Positions 2 to 32,718 of a DNA stretch of 64,000 nt are shown in pieces. Position 1 is the first letter of the stretch; each line of letters opens with the position of its first letter. The stretch comes from a phage. The notes under the pieces are model-generated. The model worked only from the letters and a program-made list of their open reading frames with translations. It was not told the DNA's origin and did no database searches. The stretch lies in the sequence record PV946933.1. One strand, 5' to 3'. The translations under genes were made by a program, and so were the position numbers.

Positions 2-865
2 ATGACTGCTGAAGCCCGCCAGATTCATCCAGAAGGCGTGTTAATCGATGGCGAATTGGTATACCATGAGCAAGTTGAAAAGGAGCCAGAAGGCCTAGAT
101 TTTCTTTTTGACTCTCCTGAAAATAGTAAAGTTAAAGAGTTTGCCGAAGTAGCTGAATCTCGTACTGCTTCTAATGGAATCGCTAATAAATCTTTAAAGG
201 GAACTATTTCAGAAAAAGAAGCCAAATGTATGAAGTTTCAGGTCTGGGATTATGTCCCGTTGGTAGAAATATACGGTCTTCCGGCGTTTCGTTTAAAATA
301 TGATGTACGTTTTTCTAAACTAGAACAAATGACATCAGGATATGATAAAGTAATTTTAATTGAAAACCAAGTAGTAAATAACCTAGATGAAGCTAAGGTA
401 ATTTATAAAAAGTATATTGACCAAGGTCTTGAAGGTATTATTCTCAAAAATACCGATGGATTGTGGGAAAATGCTCGTTCAAAAAATCTCTATAAATTTA
501 AAGAAGTAATTGATGTTGATTTAAAAATTGTAGGAATTTATCCTCACCGTAAAGACCCTACTAAAGCGGGTGGATTTATTCTTGAATCAGAGTGTGGAAA
601 AATTAAAGTAAATGCAGGTTCAGGCTTAAAAGATAAAGCTGGCGTAAAATCACATGAACTTGACCGTACTCGCATTATGGAAAACCAAAATTATTATATT
701 GGAAAAATTCTAGAGTGCGAATGCAATGGTTGGTTAAAATCTGATGGCCGCACTGATTACGTTAAATTATTTCTTCCGATTGCGATTCGTTTACGTGAAG
801 ATAAAACTAAAGCTAATACATTTGAGGATGTATTTGGTGATTTTCATGAGGTAACTGGTTTATGA
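2..865 (+). CDS. 30: DNA ligase, C-terminal part (5' end outside window)
   Basis: ORF open at window start; recalled T4 ligase-like sequence; sits next to alt as in T4. Confidence 0.85.
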   Translation: MTAEARQIHPEGVLIDGELVYHEQVEKEPEGLDFLFDSPENSKVKEFAEVAESRTASNGIANKSLKGTISEKEAKCMKFQVWDYVPLVEIYGLPAFRLKYDVRFSKLEQMTSGYDKVILIENQVVNNLDEAKVIYKKYIDQGLEGIILKNTDGLWENARSKNLYKFKEVIDVDLKIVGIYPHRKDPTKAGGFILESECGKIKVNAGSGLKDKAGVKSHELDRTRIMENQNYYIGKILECECNGWLKSDGRTDYVKLFLPIAIRLREDKTKANTFEDVFGDFHEVTGL

Positions 866-1050
866 AAGCTTACTTAGAAACAATTGTCATTGCTCAAAAA
901 GAAGGTGGAGATGTTTCTACTTCGGTATCACAAGTCATTCTCGAATTTGTAGATGCATATGCTTATAATAAATTTACAGAAACATTTGATGCCTACGAAA
1001 AAGGTCCAAAGTTTGAAATATATCGTACTCTCTTACCACTAGATTATTAA
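862..1050 (+). CDS. hypothetical small protein (62 aa)
   Basis: ORF start overlaps ligase stop (ATGA junction); no recognisable motif. Confidence 0.4.
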   Translation: MKAYLETIVIAQKEGGDVSTSVSQVILEFVDAYAYNKFTETFDAYEKGPKFEIYRTLLPLDY

Positions 1051-1071
1051 AGGCCTTCGGGCCTTTAATTT
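1049..1071 (+). terminator. stem-loop aaaggcc-ttcg-ggccttt followed by aatttt
   Basis: 7-bp stem with UUCG-type loop seen directly. Confidence 0.5.
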
Positions 1072-1079
1072 TATAAATA
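1072..1079 (+). promoter_or_regulatory. T4 late promoter motif TATAAATA upstream of alt
   Basis: exact TATAAATA about 20 nt before the ATG at 1100/1103. Confidence 0.6.
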
Positions 1080-1102
1080 GAATAAACACTAGAGAGGATA
1101 TG

Positions 1103-3157
1103 ATGGAACTCATTACAGAATTATTTGACGAAGATACTACTCTTCCGATTACAAACTTAAATCCAAAGAAGAAAATACCACAAATTTTTTCAGTTCATGT
1201 TGATGATGCAATTGAACAACCAGGCTTTCGTTTATGTACCTATACATCTGGAGGTGATACTAATCGCGATTTAAAAATGGGCGATAAAATGATGCATATT
1301 GTTCCTTTTACATTAACTGCTAAAGGTTCAATTGCTAAATTAAAAGGTCTCGGTCCAAGTCCAATTAATTACATCAATTCAGTTTTTACTGTTGCAATGC
1401 AGACGATGCGTCAGTATAAAATTGATGCCTGCATGCTTCGTATTCTTAAGTCTAAAACTGCTGGTCAAGCTCGACAAATTCAAGTTATTGCTGATAGACT
1501 TATCCGTAGTCGTTCAGGTGGCAGATACGTCCTTCTTAAGGAACTCTGGGATTATGATAAAAAGTATGCATATATTCTTATACATCGCAAAAACGTATCA
1601 CTAGAAGACATTCCAGGAGTTCCGGAAATTAGTACCGAGCTCTTTACTAAAGTTGAATCGAAGGTCGGCGATGTTTATATCAATAAAGATACTGGGGTTC
1701 AAGTAACTAAAAATGAGGCAATTGCGGCATCTATTGCGCAAGAAAACGATAAACGTTCTGACCAAGCTGTAATTGTTAAAGTTAAAATTTCCCGTAGAGC
1801 AATTGCACAAAGTCAGTCATTGGAATCTTCTAGATTTGAAACACCAATGTTTCAAAAATTTGAGGCTTCAGCAGCAGAATTAAATAAACCTGCCGACGCG
1901 CCTTTAATTTCTGATGCGAACGAATTAACCGTTATTTCTACTTCAGGATTTGCATTAGAGAATGCTCTTAATAGTGTTACGGCTGGAATGGCATTCAGAG
2001 AAGCTTCTATAATTCCTGAAGATAAAGAATCTGATGTTAATGCAGAAATAAAAAATAAAGCTTTAGAAAGATTACGAAAAGAATCTATTACTTCAATAAA
2101 AACTTTAGAAACTATTGCTTCTATAGTCGATGATACTTTAGAAAAATATAAAAGTGCTTGGTTAGAAAGAAATATTAACAAGCATTCGCATTTAAATCAA
2201 GATGCTGCAAATGAGTTAGTGCAAAATTCTTGGAATGCAATAAAAACAAAGATTATTCGAAGAGAATTACGTGGATATGCTCTTACCGTTGGGTGGTCAT
2301 TGCATTCTATAGTCGAAAATAAAGATTCATCTAAATACACACCGGCTCAAAAACGCGGAATTCGTGAATATGTGGGTTCAGGATATGTAGACATGAATAA
2401 TGCTCTTTTGGGATTATATAATCCAGATGAGCGTACAAGTATTTTGACAGCACCCGAAATAGAACAAGCCATCGATAATTTAGATTCAGCCTTTAAAAAT
2501 GGCGATCGATTGCCAAAAGGTATTACTTTATATCGTTCACAGCGAATGTTACCTTCAATATATGAAGCATTGGTAAAAAATCGAGTTTTTTATTTTAGAA
2601 ATTTTGTATCAACATCGTTATATCCAAACATTTTTGGTACTTGGATGACTGATTCAGCTGTGGGTGTTTTACCAGATGAAAAACGTCTAAGCATTTCTAT
2701 CGATAAAAATGATGAAGGGCTTGTTAATTCTAGCGATAATTTAGTTGGAATTGGATGGGTTATTACTGGAGCTGATAAAGTCAATGTTGTTTTACCCGGT
2801 GGAAGTTTAGCGCCTTCAAATGAAATGGAAGTCATTTTGCCACGTGGATTAATGGTCAAAATTAATAAAATAACCGATGCATCTTACAATGATGGAACAG
2901 TTAAAACTAACAACAAGCTTATTCAAGCTGAAGTTATGACTACGGAAGAACTCACCGAATCGGTAATTTATGACGGTGACCGTCTAATGGAAACTGGTGA
3001 ATTGGTTGCAATGACAGATGATATTGAAATAGAAGACAGAGTTGACTTTGCATCATTTGTTTCATCAAATGTTAAACAGAAAGCAGAATCATCTCTCGGA
3101 ATTATTGCGTCTTGCATAGATATTACAAACATGCCTTACAAGTTCGTTCAAGGATAA
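1103..3157 (+). CDS. alt: Alt-like ADP-ribosyltransferase, copy 1 (685 aa ORF)
   Basis: N-terminus MELITELFDE; C-terminal R (LYRSQ), STS (FVSTSL) and ExE (EMEVILPRG) ART motifs; position between 30 and 54. Confidence 0.8.
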   Translation: MELITELFDEDTTLPITNLNPKKKIPQIFSVHVDDAIEQPGFRLCTYTSGGDTNRDLKMGDKMMHIVPFTLTAKGSIAKLKGLGPSPINYINSVFTVAMQTMRQYKIDACMLRILKSKTAGQARQIQVIADRLIRSRSGGRYVLLKELWDYDKKYAYILIHRKNVSLEDIPGVPEISTELFTKVESKVGDVYINKDTGVQVTKNEAIAASIAQENDKRSDQAVIVKVKISRRAIAQSQSLESSRFETPMFQKFEASAAELNKPADAPLISDANELTVISTSGFALENALNSVTAGMAFREASIIPEDKESDVNAEIKNKALERLRKESITSIKTLETIASIVDDTLEKYKSAWLERNINKHSHLNQDAANELVQNSWNAIKTKIIRRELRGYALTVGWSLHSIVENKDSSKYTPAQKRGIREYVGSGYVDMNNALLGLYNPDERTSILTAPEIEQAIDNLDSAFKNGDRLPKGITLYRSQRMLPSIYEALVKNRVFYFRNFVSTSLYPNIFGTWMTDSAVGVLPDEKRLSISIDKNDEGLVNSSDNLVGIGWVITGADKVNVVLPGGSLAPSNEMEVILPRGLMVKINKITDASYNDGTVKTNNKLIQAEVMTTEELTESVIYDGDRLMETGELVAMTDDIEIEDRVDFASFVSSNVKQKAESSLGIIASCIDITNMPYKFVQG

Positions 3158-3160
3158 ATC

Positions 3161-5218
3161 ATGGAACTTATTACAGAATTATTTGACGGCGCTTCGGCGC
3201 CGGTTGTTAACTTAAATCCTAAGCATAAAATACCTCAAATTTTTGCTATTCAAGCCGGTGAAGAAAGCGTGCTTCCTGGATTTAGATTTTGTACATACAC
3301 CTCTGGTGGTGATACAAATAAAAACGTTAAGCCAGGCGATAAAATGATGCATATCGTAATGATAGGTGTTAATGAGAAACTATCATTAGTTAAACTTAAA
3401 AACTTGGGTGGAAATCCAATTGGTGTCATTAATGCGGTTTTTGATACTGCTCTTCAGACAATGAAACAATACAAAATTGACGCATGCTTATTCCGCGTAC
3501 TAAAGAGTAAAACAAATGGTGCAGCTCGTCAAATGCAAGTTATTGCCGACCGTTTAGTACGTACTAAAGGAGCAGGTCGATATGTTCTTTTAAAGGAAAT
3601 CTGGGATTACGATAAAAAGTACGCATATATTATGGTTTACCGTAAAAATGCTAATTTAGAAGACATTCCAGGTGTACCTCCTATTTCAACTGAGTTATTC
3701 ACAAAAGTTGAATCAAAGGTTGGTGATGTTTATGTAGATGTTAAAACAGGTAATGCTGTTCCTAAAGCTGTTGCTGTTGCTGCTTCTATTGCTTTAGAAA
3801 ACGATAAGCGCACGGATCAAGCTGTTATTCAGAAAACTAAAATTAGTCGTCGGTTAGCAGCACAAGCTCAATATTCTACTGTCGATGCTTCACTTCAGGG
3901 TGATAGCTTCGCTGCTAAGAAATATCAAGAGTTTGAATCTAAAGTTCCGGTATATAAAGCAGAAGGACCAATGAACTCTGGCGTTATTCAGGTTGGTTCA
4001 AACTTCAGCAAAGGAGCTATCGGTGGTATGAGAAGTGCTTCCCGTTTTAAATCTAGTGATTATGAATTAGAAAGCTTCCGAAATCATATTGCATTGGCTC
4101 ATGCGCGTTTACGTGATCCATCTATCAAGTTACAGAGCGATATATCATATCAAGGTTCTCAAGAATATTTAAAGAATAAAGAATTTTTTGATTATAAAAC
4201 TGATAAAATTTTAAGTGATCTTGCTGACATTAATATTTCTAATAGCTTTGATGTTATTAAGAAAATTGTCAATGATTTAGTTAAAGGTTCTAAAGCCACA
4301 CCAGATGAAAAGGTAGCTATTGTTCAATTTGTCATGAATGGCATTTATAAATTGATTAATGAGTCTGCTTCTCAAGCGTATGAATATGCAAGTACTGAAG
4401 TAACCCCAAAAGGATTAACTCGGGCTGAGTCTGATGTAATTGAAGATTATTGTGCAGATTCATATGTTGAAATGAACTCGTTCCTTTTAGGTAAACCGGA
4501 TTCTACCCGTGAAGAATATATGGAACGAGCTATTAAACACATCGAGACAATGGATTCTGCCTTTGCCAAAGGATCAGTTCTTCCTCCAGGAACTACACTT
4601 TACCGTGGGCAAGAAGTTACCTTTAAAACTTTACGTCATAATATTGAAAATAAAATGTTCTACTTCAAGAACTTCGTATCCACATCGCTTAAACCAAATA
4701 TCTTCGGTGAGTATGGTAAAAACTATATGGCTCTAGATGATTCCAGTACAGTATTTTCTGGTGAAGGAGAAGGTTCAGTTGATGCTGAAGATTTAATGCA
4801 TATGGGTAGTCACTCTGCTTATGCGAATGAAGATGCTGAAACTAGCGTAGGTATGGTAATTAAAGGGGCTGAGCGAATTAAAGTTATCGTTCCAGGTCAT
4901 TTATCAGGATTTCCATCAGAAGCTGAAGTTATTTTACCACGTGGAATTTTGCTGAAGATTAATAAAGTGAGTACGTACATGATGAAAGAAACTGCTTATA
5001 ATAAGTATCTAATCGAAGGCACAATCGTTCCTCCTTCTGAACAATTAGAAGAATCGGTATATGATGGCGACCATCTAATGGAAACTGGTGAAGTTCGTCC
5101 AATGGCTGGATTTAATCAATTCCTTGTAGAAGAATCAAAAGAAGAGGAAAACGAAGTTTCTCAAATCTTGGCTTCTTTGGTTAACATCAACGGAATGTCT
5201 AAAAAGTTCAAGATGTAG
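3161..5218 (+). CDS. alt: Alt-like ADP-ribosyltransferase, copy 2 (685 aa)
   Basis: paralog of copy 1: conserved N-terminal ~230 aa, LYRGQ / FVSTSL / EAEVILPRG motifs; 3-nt intergenic gap. Confidence 0.8.
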   Translation: MELITELFDGASAPVVNLNPKHKIPQIFAIQAGEESVLPGFRFCTYTSGGDTNKNVKPGDKMMHIVMIGVNEKLSLVKLKNLGGNPIGVINAVFDTALQTMKQYKIDACLFRVLKSKTNGAARQMQVIADRLVRTKGAGRYVLLKEIWDYDKKYAYIMVYRKNANLEDIPGVPPISTELFTKVESKVGDVYVDVKTGNAVPKAVAVAASIALENDKRTDQAVIQKTKISRRLAAQAQYSTVDASLQGDSFAAKKYQEFESKVPVYKAEGPMNSGVIQVGSNFSKGAIGGMRSASRFKSSDYELESFRNHIALAHARLRDPSIKLQSDISYQGSQEYLKNKEFFDYKTDKILSDLADINISNSFDVIKKIVNDLVKGSKATPDEKVAIVQFVMNGIYKLINESASQAYEYASTEVTPKGLTRAESDVIEDYCADSYVEMNSFLLGKPDSTREEYMERAIKHIETMDSAFAKGSVLPPGTTLYRGQEVTFKTLRHNIENKMFYFKNFVSTSLKPNIFGEYGKNYMALDDSSTVFSGEGEGSVDAEDLMHMGSHSAYANEDAETSVGMVIKGAERIKVIVPGHLSGFPSEAEVILPRGILLKINKVSTYMMKETAYNKYLIEGTIVPPSEQLEESVYDGDHLMETGEVRPMAGFNQFLVEESKEEENEVSQILASLVNINGMSKKFKM

Positions 5219-5247
5219 TTTACAAGTCACTCGTGTTGTGTTATAAT
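5218..5247 (+). promoter_or_regulatory. early-promoter-like GTTTAC -35 and TATAAT -10
   Basis: GTTTAC at 5218-5223, TGT-TATAAT at 5239-5247, 18-bp spacer. Confidence 0.5.
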
Positions 5248-5278
5248 AATCTTACTGACATAACATGAGGAACACAAA

Positions 5279-5569
5279 ATGAAATCTTCTTTGCGCTTTT
5301 TAGGTCAAGAACTCGTAGTTGAAGGCGTTATTCCTGCTGATAACGCTTTTAATGAAGCGGTTTACGACGAATTTATCAAAATTTTTGGAACAGATAAAAA
5401 GTTCGGAATTTTTCCTTCTGAAAATTTTTCAAAGCCAGAGCAGACTGAAAGTATTTTCCAAGGTGTAGTAACAGGTAAATTTGAGTCAGAAGCTCCGGTA
5501 AAAATTGAAGTTTATATTGAAGACAGTTTAGTTGCTTCAGTTGCTGCTTTTATTTCATTCCGTAAATAA
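5279..5569 (+). CDS. hypothetical protein (96 aa)
   Basis: ORF with upstream AGGA RBS; no recognisable domain. Confidence 0.45.
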   Translation: MKSSLRFLGQELVVEGVIPADNAFNEAVYDEFIKIFGTDKKFGIFPSENFSKPEQTESIFQGVVTGKFESEAPVKIEVYIEDSLVASVAAFISFRK

Positions 5570-5573
5570 AAAT

Positions 5574-5595
5574 ATGGGGACCGAAAGGTCCCCAT
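5574..5595. terminator. hairpin atggggacc-gaaa-ggtccccat between convergent genes
   Basis: perfect 9-bp stem with GAAA loop seen directly. Confidence 0.6.
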
Positions 5596-5597
5596 TG

Positions 5598-6563
5598 TTA
5601 TATTGCTCCTAATATTTTACTTTGCGAGTTGACAATTCCTGTCATAGTATTAATGTTTGAAATGCTTCCTGCAGTTCCTCCTAATCTACTAAGTCGTGAA
5701 AGCGAATTAGATAGTCCAGTAACACCTCCACTATTTCCGAGAACGCTTTGAATGCCATTTATAGCAGCAGATTCAAGCCATTCAAGCGCAGCTTGTCTAT
5801 CAACTGCTCCAGCCTGCATGACTCTATACGCAAAAGTAACATCAAATGTAGTTATTTGATTATCTCCATCATATGATAACTCAGGAGCGCTCACTGACAC
5901 TGGAATGCATCCGGTGAACATCACAGCAGTATGAGGTAATCCATTACGAGCATGAAGATTAACCTGAATGTCTGCCTCGACATCTTGCGGTAAAGCACGC
6001 AATCCAGTTACTGGGTCTTGAACAGCGTTAACCCAGTCTTGCATCGCACGATAATTACATGCTTCTGAATCCATCCTAAATGAAATAACCAAAGGGTCTA
6101 ATTCTCTCCCAGTTATACGAATATTAGGAGAATTATAGTTCCAGTCAGTTTCATAGGATAATCTATTCTCTGGCATTTTTACGGAGTATATCATCAATCC
6201 AGATGAGTTATATGCCATGTTAAAGAAGTCAATTAAATATGTACCAACTGTAAATGAGCCTAATAAACTTTGAACTGTACGTTGACTCATGGCACCAATA
6301 AGATATTTACTAACTCCTGATTTTCTTATCAGTTTTTGTGTGCCAGCAGTAATTAGCGTGGTAATTCCCTGATTAATATCGCCTTGAGTTAATCCTAACC
6401 AATCTGAATTTAGGCCCAAGTTATTATAAGAAAAGTTGCTAATTGAACTTATCAACGAAGAGCTTTTAGTTGATGGAGTTGTCGCAAAAACGCAGCTAAA
6501 CATATTATTACGTTGGAAATCTGCGTTTATTGCTTGATTATTAAATTCCTCTAAAGAATACAT
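5598..6563 (-). CDS. 54: baseplate tail-tube initiator gp54
   Basis: length 321 aa and T4 gene order. Confidence 0.8.
   Translation of the reverse strand: MYSLEEFNNQAINADFQRNNMFSCVFATTPSTKSSSLISSISNFSYNNLGLNSDWLGLTQGDINQGITTLITAGTQKLIRKSGVSKYLIGAMSQRTVQSLLGSFTVGTYLIDFFNMAYNSSGLMIYSVKMPENRLSYETDWNYNSPNIRITGRELDPLVISFRMDSEACNYRAMQDWVNAVQDPVTGLRALPQDVEADIQVNLHARNGLPHTAVMFTGCIPVSVSAPELSYDGDNQITTFDVTFAYRVMQAGAVDRQAALEWLESAAINGIQSVLGNSGGVTGLSNSLSRLSRLGGTAGSISNINTMTGIVNSQSKILGAI

Positions 6564-24667: not shown

Positions 24668-24668
<1 letters not shown>
24423..24668 (-). CDS. 67: prohead core protein gp67 (acidic DE-rich C-terminus)
   Basis: 81 aa; position. Confidence 0.75.
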
Positions 24669-26293
<1,625 letters not shown>

Positions 26294-26325: not shown

Positions 26326-26817
26326 TTATTCCCAATAATCGAGAGCGAGAGTTACTTCAAAGGTTTGGATTTCATTGTTTGAATCCCAATCTAATTGAAG
26401 TTCACCCACGTTGGTAGGCCACAAGCCTTTAATTTCGACTTCTTTTGTTACAGTTTTAGCGTCACGAGCATATTGGCGAACAACAGCGCTCTTTTTATAC
26501 TCTGCTGGTTTTCCACCAGTAATTTCGTTCCCTTGCCCAGCAGCAATGCTTTGCCAGTCAACAAACTTCTGGCGAGCATCATGTGCCTCATCGTTCATTA
26601 CTGTAACAGTCCAGTCATCGAATGTACGATCGCCTGCTACGTTAATTTTACGGTTCATAAATCCGACTGGAATTTTTTCTACAATACCAGCTGGTAAAGC
26701 AGTGGCTTTACATTGAAACGTAAAATTTTGTCCAAGATAAGAAATTTCTACTTGGAATAAGTTAGGTCGAGCAAAATCACCAGATTCAAACGCTCGTGTT
26801 ACATCATCTACAAACAT
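26326..26817 (-). CDS. 19: tail tube protein gp19
   Basis: 163 aa; position. Confidence 0.9.
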   Translation of the reverse strand: MFVDDVTRAFESGDFARPNLFQVEISYLGQNFTFQCKATALPAGIVEKIPVGFMNRKINVAGDRTFDDWTVTVMNDEAHDARQKFVDWQSIAAGQGNEITGGKPAEYKKSAVVRQYARDAKTVTKEVEIKGLWPTNVGELQLDWDSNNEIQTFEVTLALDYWE

Positions 26818-26831
26818 ATTAGCCTCTGTAG

Positions 26832-26839
26832 TATTTATA
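26832..26839 (-). promoter_or_regulatory. late promoter TATAAATA upstream of gene 19
   Basis: motif 15 nt before the ATG; a second copy lies at 26891-26898. Confidence 0.55.
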
Positions 26840-26924
26840 TCCCTATGTTTAACCTAGGGCATATAGAATTAAAGAATTAAGGATATAGTGTATTTATATG
26901 GCCTGCCGAAACAGGCCTTTAGAA

Positions 26925-27482
26925 TCATTCTAGTAAATCCCAAAGATCTACGCTATTTCTTTTTGACTTTTCTCGGTTAGATTCCCAAGTGATTATTTCT
27001 AAATTTTTTACGCTTGCTATAATTTCCGGCGGAATTAAATTATCAAATCCATATTTGATAGATACTTTATGATCGAGTTGGTAAGCACCTTCTACACCGC
27101 ACACTCCTATTTTATCAGCATTCGGCCATTTTGACCAAATTTTTCTTATTTTAGCTGACTTAGTTATAGAATGAACTCTACTAGCATATAATGCAAACTC
27201 TTTTCTTTTACCAGTCCATCGAGGATGTTTATCGCCTCTTTGCCATGGTCTGCTTATTCCGGATTGAACTTCCGAATTTTTAATAGCAACTTGTTTAATG
27301 CTGCATTTTCTACACGCATGTGTGGGTGTTCTATTTAAAAGCTGAATGCTTCTACTAAATTTAATACCGCATAAATCACATTTAGCGTCAACTATTTTAT
27401 TACTATTCTTTGGCATTAATTCTATTGGAACAGATACTGTATCATGATATGATACTTCATATCCTAGAATTGCCGACCACAT
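26925..27482 (-). CDS. HNH homing endonuclease-like protein
   Basis: C-terminal YQLDHKVSIKYGFDN...NLEIITWESNREKSK HNH motif; N-terminal Cys pairs; the ORF-track start at 27569 is a TTG, so the ATG at 27482 is preferred. Confidence 0.65.
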   Translation of the reverse strand: MWSAILGYEVSYHDTVSVPIELMPKNSNKIVDAKCDLCGIKFSRSIQLLNRTPTHACRKCSIKQVAIKNSEVQSGISRPWQRGDKHPRWTGKRKEFALYASRVHSITKSAKIRKIWSKWPNADKIGVCGVEGAYQLDHKVSIKYGFDNLIPPEIIASVKNLEIITWESNREKSKRNSVDLWDLLE

Positions 27483-27547
27483 TTTTGAATGATTTCTTGG
27501 TTTTATTGTAACAAACTTAGAAATAATCACTTGTTTCCTCGAGAATA

Positions 27548-27561
27548 GGGGCCGAAGCCCC
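27548..27561 (-). terminator. hairpin ggggc-cgaa-gcccc after gene 18
   Basis: seen directly; lies between the gene 18 stop and the likely HNH start. Confidence 0.45.
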
Positions 27562-27569
27562 ACAATCAA

Positions 27570-29549
27570 TTAACCTGCAAGACCAGTTAACTCATCGAAA
27601 TCTGCACCAGTAGCAGTTGCGACGAAATTAAGTTGGATATAATTTATACTACGAGCCGGTTGGATGTAGAATGTTGCAACAAACTCATTTCTATCAATTA
27701 CTGACGGAGTGTTATTTGTTGTATCGCAAACTACACGATATTCATAAATTCCACCGAGAGCTTTAATTCCCTGTAAGTATTGGGCAGTTTCTGTGCGGAA
27801 TGATGAACGAGTAAACGCGTTGTTTAATTCGAACAAACGATATTTTGAACTACGTCCGATATTCGTTTTCAACATATTAAACAGACGACGAACGTTAATA
27901 CGATCAAATGGAGAAGGAACAGAAGTAGCTGTTTTATCACCATACAATACGTAACCATCACCACCTGTACCAGTTACTGGGTTGATAGCTTCTTGGTATA
28001 AACGGTCGCGCTGAGCTTGGCGAGTTTCAATAGCAAGTTTAATAACGTTAAGAATCTGACCACGATTATAACCAGCTGGAGACATCCAAGTCTGAGAAAC
28101 GTTATCAGTTCTTGCGCATAAACCGGCAATATCAGCTGCTAATGGAACCCAGCGATTGACATCATTATATTTGTCATATTGATATTTGTAGTTACCATCA
28201 ATTGCTGCGTAGGTTGAACTGATATTAAAGTTATTATCAGTGTATGAACCTGCTGCAGTTCTCCAATTGACTAAGTTATCAACAGCACGAGTTACAGGAA
28301 TTCCAACTACAGTTTCACGCGGTGGTGAGCACAATACTAAGCAATCTTGGCGAGCATCCCCAATTGAAACGACGTGTTTTTGGACAGTAGATGCTGTTTC
28401 TAAAGATTCACCGGCACAAGAACCCGCAATAAACAGCTGAACGTCAACGGATTCACGGTCAGCAAAGAAGTCCCAAGCTTCCATTAAATCTCCTGCTGTT
28501 ACTTCAGCATTTGATGATAATCCACCAGACAGAGTTAAAATTCCAGAGAAGCCTTCTGGCCAGTTTTGTGCAGTTGCAAAAATATATTCTGAACCACCTT
28601 TTGCGAAAAAGTCATCAATATAGATGTTACTATCGTAAATATCTTTTTCGCCACGCTTTGTTGAAAGAACGACGCTTTGAACAATAGCATCATTGCGACG
28701 AACTATAATAGCGTATTGCGAATCAGTTTGTGGTCCATATCCAAACACTGCTTTGGCAGTAGATGCGCGTGTTCCGCCACCTGGATAAATTGGGAGTAAT
28801 GCAGAAGCTCCTTTTGCGTAGTCAGCTTTAGATACGATTTCGATTTCGATTTTATCGCCCAACTCGCCTGGATAAAGAGCTACTACTCCTGGAATTCCAT
28901 ATTTTTCGAGATTTGTTTGAAATTCAACTGCTGTCATAGCAGCTTCAGCATTTTCAATCTCAGCTAATAAAATACCGGAATCAGTAATAATTTTTCCAAG
29001 AGTTATTACTGCAGCTAAACCAGAGGAAGACGAAGAAATTTCCGCGGTCCAGTTAGAACCTAATGCTGGATATTCACCGACTTCTTTCGCTTTAGCGATA
29101 ATTTTTGCGGTAGGAATATTAATTTTCTTAATTTTTCCATCAGCATCTACTTCGGTAATTTTACACTCTGTTTCAACATCTTCTGAAACATACTTAACCG
29201 TGATTTTATCTCCAACCGCGTAGTTACTACCTGGGGTAGAAATAGTGTATTCAATATTACCAGCAATCGGAGATGAGTTTTTAGCGGTATCTCTATCGAC
29301 AGCACGCACAACTCGCAAATCATTTCCGTATTGTAAGAAATTCATTGCAGACATAAAATAGTCAGCAGTTTCAGCTGTAGGTTGACCAAAAGTATTAACT
29401 AAATCTACTTCATTTGTAACCTGTTTAATTTGAAAAGCAGGACCCCACTGGAATTTACCGGCCAAAGCTGCTGTACCAGTAGAGTTATTAACCACGGTGC
29501 TTTGAACCGTAGTTTCTTTGAGCTCAATGCCCGGAGATAATAAAGTCAT
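27570..29549 (-). CDS. 18: tail sheath protein gp18
   Basis: 659 aa; position. Confidence 0.9.
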   Translation of the reverse strand: MTLLSPGIELKETTVQSTVVNNSTGTAALAGKFQWGPAFQIKQVTNEVDLVNTFGQPTAETADYFMSAMNFLQYGNDLRVVRAVDRDTAKNSSPIAGNIEYTISTPGSNYAVGDKITVKYVSEDVETECKITEVDADGKIKKINIPTAKIIAKAKEVGEYPALGSNWTAEISSSSSGLAAVITLGKIITDSGILLAEIENAEAAMTAVEFQTNLEKYGIPGVVALYPGELGDKIEIEIVSKADYAKGASALLPIYPGGGTRASTAKAVFGYGPQTDSQYAIIVRRNDAIVQSVVLSTKRGEKDIYDSNIYIDDFFAKGGSEYIFATAQNWPEGFSGILTLSGGLSSNAEVTAGDLMEAWDFFADRESVDVQLFIAGSCAGESLETASTVQKHVVSIGDARQDCLVLCSPPRETVVGIPVTRAVDNLVNWRTAAGSYTDNNFNISSTYAAIDGNYKYQYDKYNDVNRWVPLAADIAGLCARTDNVSQTWMSPAGYNRGQILNVIKLAIETRQAQRDRLYQEAINPVTGTGGDGYVLYGDKTATSVPSPFDRINVRRLFNMLKTNIGRSSKYRLFELNNAFTRSSFRTETAQYLQGIKALGGIYEYRVVCDTTNNTPSVIDRNEFVATFYIQPARSINYIQLNFVATATGADFDELTGLAG

Positions 29550-29577: not shown

Positions 29578-32718
<3,141 letters not shown>

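Follow-up and report, generated by a model that had tools for sequence, protein, structure and literature searches.

ORF19.1 at the tail sheath–tail tube junction of T4-like phages, a probable free-standing homing endonuclease gene of the zinc-ribbon and HNH type

For intronless homing, the T-even phages are the classic system; their endonuclease gene mobE sits between nrdA and nrdB, and Hef of phage U5 is a free-standing endonuclease of a T4-like phage that lacks a classical motif. MobA–MobE, the free-standing HNH homing endonucleases of T-even phages, carry the HNH domain at the N-terminus, seven T4 seg and mob genes are promoterless cassettes, and at nrdA/mobE in T4 the start codon overlaps the upstream stop (PMC2988022). 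Among other T4-like genomes, hef-like genes were tabulated in phages 133 (one gene) and Acj9, together with one 'other HNH' gene in T6 (Petrov et al. 2010, Table 5; PMC2993671). A further known enzyme, I-HmuI of Bacillus phage SPO1 (PDB 1u3e), is intron-encoded and has its nuclease domain at the N-terminus. The gene analysed here, ORF19.1, is omitted from the standard T-even endonuclease catalogue of seg, mob, hef and intron-encoded genes and is not mentioned in the T4 mobile-element review (PMC2988022); a literature search for ORF19.1 and gp19.1 found no experiment on the protein, the name matching only Candida genes.

The window, i.e. the whole stretch of phage DNA that was analysed (64,000 nucleotides, PV946933.1), contains an open reading frame between the genes for the tail sheath (gene 18, gp18) and the tail tube (gene 19, gp19), which by sequence corresponds to "ORF19.1" of phage T6. 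It is not new as a sequence, as T6 ORF19.1 has been in GenBank since 1994, where its annotation is still hypothetical. Like the T4 mob genes, ORF19.1 is a free-standing, promoterless intergenic cassette between conserved genes that is patchy among close relatives, and it combines an HNH-type catalytic motif with a regulatory hairpin or terminator near its 5′ end; its relatives in other lineages also resemble nrdA/mobE in that their start overlaps the upstream stop. Unlike the mob genes, it has no detectable sequence similarity to them, occupies one tblastn place per genome, places the zinc ribbon N-terminally and the nuclease C-terminally, i.e. in reversed domain order, goes unrecognised by curated HNH profiles, and lies in the late structural gene block and not among nucleotide-metabolism genes. 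The structural match to I-HmuI is weak, and a four-cysteine zinc ribbon takes the place of the NUMOD/HTH modules of that enzyme. By analogy ORF19.1 would work like the T4 Mobs and I-HmuI, yet the missing similarity, the reversed domain order and the lack of a curated profile match place it outside both families. We regard it as probably the T6-type allele of a free-standing zinc-ribbon and HNH-type homing endonuclease gene; a free-standing homing endonuclease insertion had already been proposed in the first-pass annotation of this DNA, and it is supported by a polymorphism with fixed boundaries, by conserved D-H...N...N residues and by the mobility of the family.

Anatomy and expression of the ORF19.1 gene

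The window genes around gp18 and gp19 are T4-type late genes on the minus strand, on which gene 18 (27570-29549), gene 19 (26326-26817) and the reading frame between them all lie. The maximal open reading frame (26925-27569) begins with a TTG that immediately follows the gp18 stop; the true start, judged from the sequence, is very probably the GTG at 27530, because a Shine-Dalgarno GAGG (27537-27540, kept in T6, ADUt and HP3.2) is located 6 nt 5′ of it and because the PHROG 5104 profile and all homologues start there (M-I-I-S-K). The coding sequence so defined (26925-27530) specifies 201 aa and ends with TGA. A dN/dS of 0.07–0.12 was determined between close ORF19.1 alleles, which, together with hundreds of homologues, identifies the frame as a genuine gene and, together with the intact frames, indicates a protein under selection. 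A decaying copy in Salmonella phage S16, where 106 aa are annotated, was ruled out by tblastn, which recovered a complete, uninterrupted frame that starts with GTG; the short annotation is an artefact of that GTG having been missed. As a separate matter of start codons in the window, the program-called portal ORF, gp20 (24668-26254), begins at an upstream TTG (MENTMKFN...), and the conventional T4 gp20 start is presumably the internal ATG (MKFNVLSLF...).

No TATAAATA late-promoter motif occurs inside the cassette, and the nearest one upstream of ORF19.1 is the gene 18 promoter motif (29578-29585), so that ORF19.1, without a promoter of its own, is carried by the gene 18 late transcript. The hairpin described in the first-pass annotation after gene 18 and before the ORF was found as GGGGC-UUCG-GCCCC (27548-27561, minus strand), 9 nt past the gp18 stop and within the inserted sequence. 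Stem-loops of differing sequence follow the gp18 stop and precede the endonuclease start in T6, S16, PKO111, L019 and L097 as well; such a recurrent stem-loop may give the gene 18 message back its 3′ hairpin and keep read-through low. In the window the leader hairpin leaves the ribosome-binding site uncovered, and the 86-nt leader folds no better than its shuffles (z = -0.08); translational occlusion by this hairpin is not claimed.

Presence, absence and exchange at the gp18–gp19 junction

Alignment of the junction in the window, T6, ADUt, HP3.2, T4 and T2 delimited an inserted cassette on the minus strand (26926-27569, boundaries ±1 bp), namely 644 bp in the window (27569-26926) versus the 8 bp TACGGTGC in T4 and T2, whose empty junction reads gp18-TAA / TACGGTGC / ATTCTAAAGGCCTG... 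The last base of the ORF19.1 stop coincides with the first base of the flank common to the empty genomes. ORF19.1 is absent from T4, as the first-pass annotation had supposed, and likewise from T2 and RB32. The ORF is also followed, as had been described, by a hairpin (GGCCUGU-UUCG-GCAGGCC, 26900-26917, fold z = -2.6) and by two T4 late-promoter motifs TATAAATA (26891-26898 and 26832-26839), all on the minus strand and the latter serving gene 19; as context of an insertion they need correcting: the hairpin, both motifs and the gene 19 start of the occupied genomes recur base for base in T4 and T2, both without the ORF. They are native T4 backbone outside the insertion, and only the upstream UUCG hairpin is insert-borne.

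When 50,697 phage records were searched by megablast with the junction, 674 matched, including 521 with ≥95% identity (RefSeq/GenBank duplicates counted), with spans of 1701 bp for occupied and 1065 bp for empty junctions. The whole query, i.e. the T6-type allele, was matched in 70 of these 521, including T6 and Yersinia phage PST, and a second allele in 48, including RB5, RB10, HP3 and ADUt, while the remaining records were empty, T4, T2 and RB32 among them. About one-quarter of the T4-group phages are thus occupied, and about three-quarters of the Tequatrovirus records are without the gene. The same empty junction was present in all five IMG/VR Tequatrovirus contigs from the junction scan, a number too small for population analysis. 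The gp18–gp19 junction is hence polymorphic, with fixed boundaries, intact neighbour genes and differences between close relatives. Two records, MG010123.1 ('Staphylococcus phage SAJK-IND', 32 kb) and OR584013.1 ('Pseudomonas phage PsgM02F'), contain a Tequatrovirus gp19 at 100% as well as ORF19.1 alleles and are probably mislabelled or contaminated.

The first-pass annotation had proposed to align this junction for presence/absence polymorphism and for the target site. The former was found; a polymorphism marking target-site immunity was not, as occupied and empty genomes do not differ in the final 110 nt of gene 18 or in the ~150 nt that come first downstream. About 60 nt before its stop, gene 18 has a cluster of four substitutions in 6 nt (27625-27633; ATC CAA CTT versus ATT ACT TTG, Gln versus Thr), which segregates among Tequatroviruses independently of the cassette. 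Target-site immunity through this cluster, which at first seemed to go with the cassette, was ruled out, as the empty contigs L091 and L093 carry it and the ADUt allele occurs without it.

Full-length homologues adjoin the gp18 3′ end in Jiaodavirus, Gelderlandvirus, Karamvirus, Twarogvirinae, Emdodecavirus and many environmental T4-like contigs; in the distant phages with a homologue at this place, gp18 and gp19 are only 30–50% identical to those of the window, and in some lineages the endonuclease start overlaps the gp18 stop (TGATG, TAATG, ATGA). By tblastn, the C-terminal domain was located in 246 records versus 2,369 with gp19, an occupancy of ~10% that is sporadic in every genus (by host, 40 of 321 for Klebsiella and 15 of 69 for Acinetobacter); these 246 records hold 247 places, so that T-even genomes have no paralogues. 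A conserved position with low occupancy fits both the repeated re-invasion of one target and an old resident gene that has often been lost. In the latter case ORF19.1 would be a vertically inherited gene of the T4-like tail module, missing from T4 itself by loss, whose nuclease serves the phage in competitor exclusion or DNA processing and not its own selfish spread. Inheritance of this kind, ancient and with repeated loss, would also explain the position conserved in phages with such divergent gp18 and gp19, and it conforms to the recurrence of that position across Tevenvirinae, Twarogvirinae, Emdodecavirus and environmental contigs, to the start/stop overlaps, which suggest long co-adaptation, and to the strong purifying selection. 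Across 20 loci, moreover, allele identity tracked flank identity positively though weakly (rho 0.37–0.48, versus 0.71 for gp19 against gp18), and no allele was found to be much more similar than its flanks.

Against such an old residence stand, first of all, alleles of 46–50% identity within flanks of 99–100% identity, observed in two separate phage groups. The window and ADUt are 99–100% identical in gp18 and gp19 and have the same cassette boundaries, but their ORF19.1 proteins are only 50% identical. At the DNA level, the identity between the window and this second allele is ~90–100% in the leader and over the last ~225 bp, apart from a short dip near 27006-27045, whereas the central block (~27150-27505, minus strand, residues ~10–127) is only 30–60% identical to that of the RB5/ADUt-type allele by sliding window (alignment A1); a divergent block between similar ends indicates that the presumed DNA-binding half has been exchanged. 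The second group comprises two T4-like genomes from IMG/VR, L007 (3936-4830) and L018 (3819-4690), with identical gp19, gp18 C-termini of 99% identity and alleles of 46% identity. These alleles flank opposite sides of a common 138-bp intergenic segment and so define two distinct insertion points, one immediately behind gp18 and the second separated from the gp19 start by 4 nt. In addition, a family member lies inside rnlA (RNA ligase 1) of Acinetobacter phage 133 (L096, HM114315; 1570-3647), where a 273-aa ORF19.1 relative splits the gene and overlaps both halves, which match positions 1–32 and 48–223 of the T4 RNA-ligase profile (Pfam RNA_lig_T4_1); the depositors had annotated it with "some similarity to ORF19.1 of Enterobacteria phage T6". 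Allele replacement in near-identical flanks, the two insertion points and the rnlA insertion together support the mobility of the ORF19.1 family, and the allele replacements favour re-invasion. That allele identity follows flank identity so loosely, compared with gp19 against gp18, also speaks for mobility. Considering also the sporadic ~10% occupancy among gp19-bearing records and that T4, T2 and most relatives do without the gene, we find it unlikely that ORF19.1 is an old resident.

Some further loci of the family deserve mention. Phage 133 has one hef-like gene on the published list (PMC2993671) in addition to the ORF19.1 relative that splits rnlA, and no protein named Hef was among the matches of protein searches with ORF19.1 and with this relative. 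The endonuclease ORF of Enterobacter phage EcL8g (L097) ends within the first gp19 codons. As further evidence of mobility, four separate copies of the C-terminal domain lie within 8 kb of one environmental contig, a cluster of related endonuclease genes around gp18- and gp20-like genes that is recorded for the IMG/VR contigs L061 and L062 (~700-5800).

Zinc ribbon and HNH-like domain of the protein

Both protein features noted in the first-pass annotation, a C-terminal HNH motif and N-terminal cysteine pairs, were confirmed. The motif QLDHKVSIKYGF...NLEIITWESNREKSK is present in ORF19.1 and invariant or nearly so in the family, and the pairs are C51-x2-C54 and C73-x2-C76 in the numbering of the 201-aa protein. 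An AF2 model (pLDDT 89) displayed two domains, an N-terminal zinc-ribbon module and a separate nuclease-type C-terminal domain, connected by a lower-confidence linker at residues 90–110. The zinc ribbon with its four cysteines (27303-27380, minus strand) lies inside the N-terminal domain (residues ~1–95). The HNH-like core (residues 149–189; 26964-27086, minus strand) has D153-H154 at the end of one strand, N176 at the start of the next and N185, R186 and K188 in a helix; with β150–154, β177–181 and α182–188, the β-hairpin and the following helix of the ββα-metal fold are present in the predicted structure.

Conservation singles out the same residues. Invariant in 44 homologues are C54, Y115, G145, Q151, D153, H154, S157, G161, N176, L177, W182, N185, R186 and K188, with C51, C73 and C76 nearly so; among 144 representatives of ~25–45% identity, D153, H154, N176, L177, N185 and K188 are conserved at ≥90%. 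The residue set of HNH enzymes, i.e. a general-base His preceded by Asp, a structural Asn and a metal-ligand Asn, is matched by D153-H154, N176 and N185. The match to an HNH profile on which the first-pass annotation had made its reading depend was not obtained, and formally this goes against that reading: no HNH family in Pfam or NCBIfam was hit at E ≤ 1 by either ORF19.1 or the ADUt allele, and the weak Pfam matches among the relatives (HNH_4 in 2 of 144, 9.5e-4; HNH in 2 of 144, 2.4e-3) all fall short of the usual cut-offs. One family alone was matched strongly, PHROG 5104, a functionally unassigned family of phage proteins (E = 8.7e-82, residues 14–213 of the long ORF on profile positions 1–209 of 228). 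Despite the missing profile match, the conserved D-H...N...N pattern supports a predicted HNH (ββα-metal) nuclease.

In structure and profile comparisons, about half of the best 60 matches were His-Me-finger enzymes (Cas9 HNH domains, McrA, T5 SciA, Cap5, PacI, PtuB and I-HmuI), and the BFVD structure matches include proteins labelled HNH or homing endonuclease; Foldseek of ORF19.1 against the PDB gave no meaningful match, and family-profile searches of PDB sequences gave only the similarity of the zinc-ribbon region to mitoribosomal mS66 (E = 2e-4). ORF19.1 resembles the Cas9-type HNH domain (HNH_4) in the pattern D-H ... N-x8-N-R-x-K, with NLEIITWESNREK against NKVLTRSDKNRGK of a manually entered SpCas9 sequence. 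By hhalign its D-H, N and N fell on D839-H840, N854 and N863 of that sequence with the same N-to-N spacing, at a non-significant E of 0.12. The two differ by 8 inserted residues between the strands bearing His and Asn, and the biology is unrelated. The Gme HNH (4h9d) and phage GVE2 HNH (5h0o) proteins are single-domain enzymes of ~95 aa with 8–17% identity and no fixed genomic site.

The N-terminal four-cysteine ribbon is presumed from its sequence to be a DNA-binding module of the DUF4379/treble-clef type, DUF4379 being matched weakly by ORF19.1 and by 9 of the 144 relatives. In other relatives NUMOD3, several HTH or DUF7487 modules precede the same C-terminal domain, which also occurs alone, at unrelated loci; such swapping of the N-terminal module is typical of site-specific endonucleases with their modular build. 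The family is large: of 1.84 billion cluster representatives, 6,547 matched its profile with E ≤ 1e-3, and 119 reached E ≤ 1e-30.

These data also bear on the idea that ORF19.1 is a nucleic-acid-binding regulator, in which the zinc ribbon is joined to a degenerate, inactive HNH-like domain and which tunes, for example, gene 18/19 expression. A hairpin-bracketed site between two stoichiometrically coupled structural genes would suit such a protein, as would the lack of a curated HNH profile match; yet no position of the family is better conserved in the 144 diverse representatives than the would-be catalytic D-H, N and N, which an inactive domain would not keep, and the C-terminal domain also stands by itself or follows other DNA-binding modules at loci unrelated to this one, so that we hold this explanation to be quite improbable. 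An accessory HNH nuclease of DNA packaging or virion assembly, like the HNH proteins beside the terminase genes of cos phages, is the least probable of all, for, although an HNH-like protein does lie within the structural gene block and the terminase large subunit gene is just upstream of gp18 in PKO111 and phiM19, ORF19.1 is dispensable (missing from T4, T2 and most Tequatrovirus records), its zinc ribbon and variable cassette are the architecture of a site-specific enzyme, and T4-type phages package by headful.

Proposed homing and its consequences

Returning to the homing endonuclease, we infer its catalytic activity, its target site and its homing as follows. Read-through from the gene 18 late transcript past the short UUCG hairpin would yield a message translated from the GTG behind GAGG. 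In the resulting protein the N-terminal zinc ribbon would recognise DNA and, through the linker, position the C-terminal HNH-type nuclease domain, with D153-H154...N176...N185 as the putative catalytic residues. During mixed infection the enzyme would nick or cut the gene 18/19 junction region of an empty-site phage, and recombinational repair off the cassette-bearing genome would copy the cassette into the empty site. Such a mechanism would account for the patchy distribution as well as for the exchange of alleles between near-identical phages. If the junction itself is recognised, insertion would destroy the site; if cutting takes place at a distance, the phage's own genome may be cut too. 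Both situations are known for T4-type endonucleases.

More tentatively, and with the odds rather against it, the family may form a distinct, unmodelled lineage of HNH-like homing endonucleases (more than 6,000 metagenome clusters at 50% identity), the full-length form of which would have tracked the sheath/tube junction across the T4 superfamily and persisted by swapping DNA-binding cassettes and alternating between the two insertion points; it could then cause tail-module markers to be exchanged or excluded locally when phages co-infect a cell. Were ORF19.1 active, it would add to the known enzymes an endonuclease family with reversed domain order and no curated profile, the T6-type and RB5-type alleles would offer a natural two-allele system for the effect of a DNA-binding-module swap on target choice, and some of the local mosaicism or marker exclusion around genes 18–20 in crosses of T6 with T2 or T4 could be explained.

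The interest of ORF19.1 lies mainly in its conserved position, its swapped recognition cassette and its missing profile model. If the enzyme is active, a new profile model would be justified and would annotate thousands of metagenomic proteins. In MW883059, AP018814/NC_054907, MT968995, PQ571308 and PQ657822 the gene is labelled as a holin, a putative head morphogenesis protein or a type II restriction endonuclease, and these labels are wrong.
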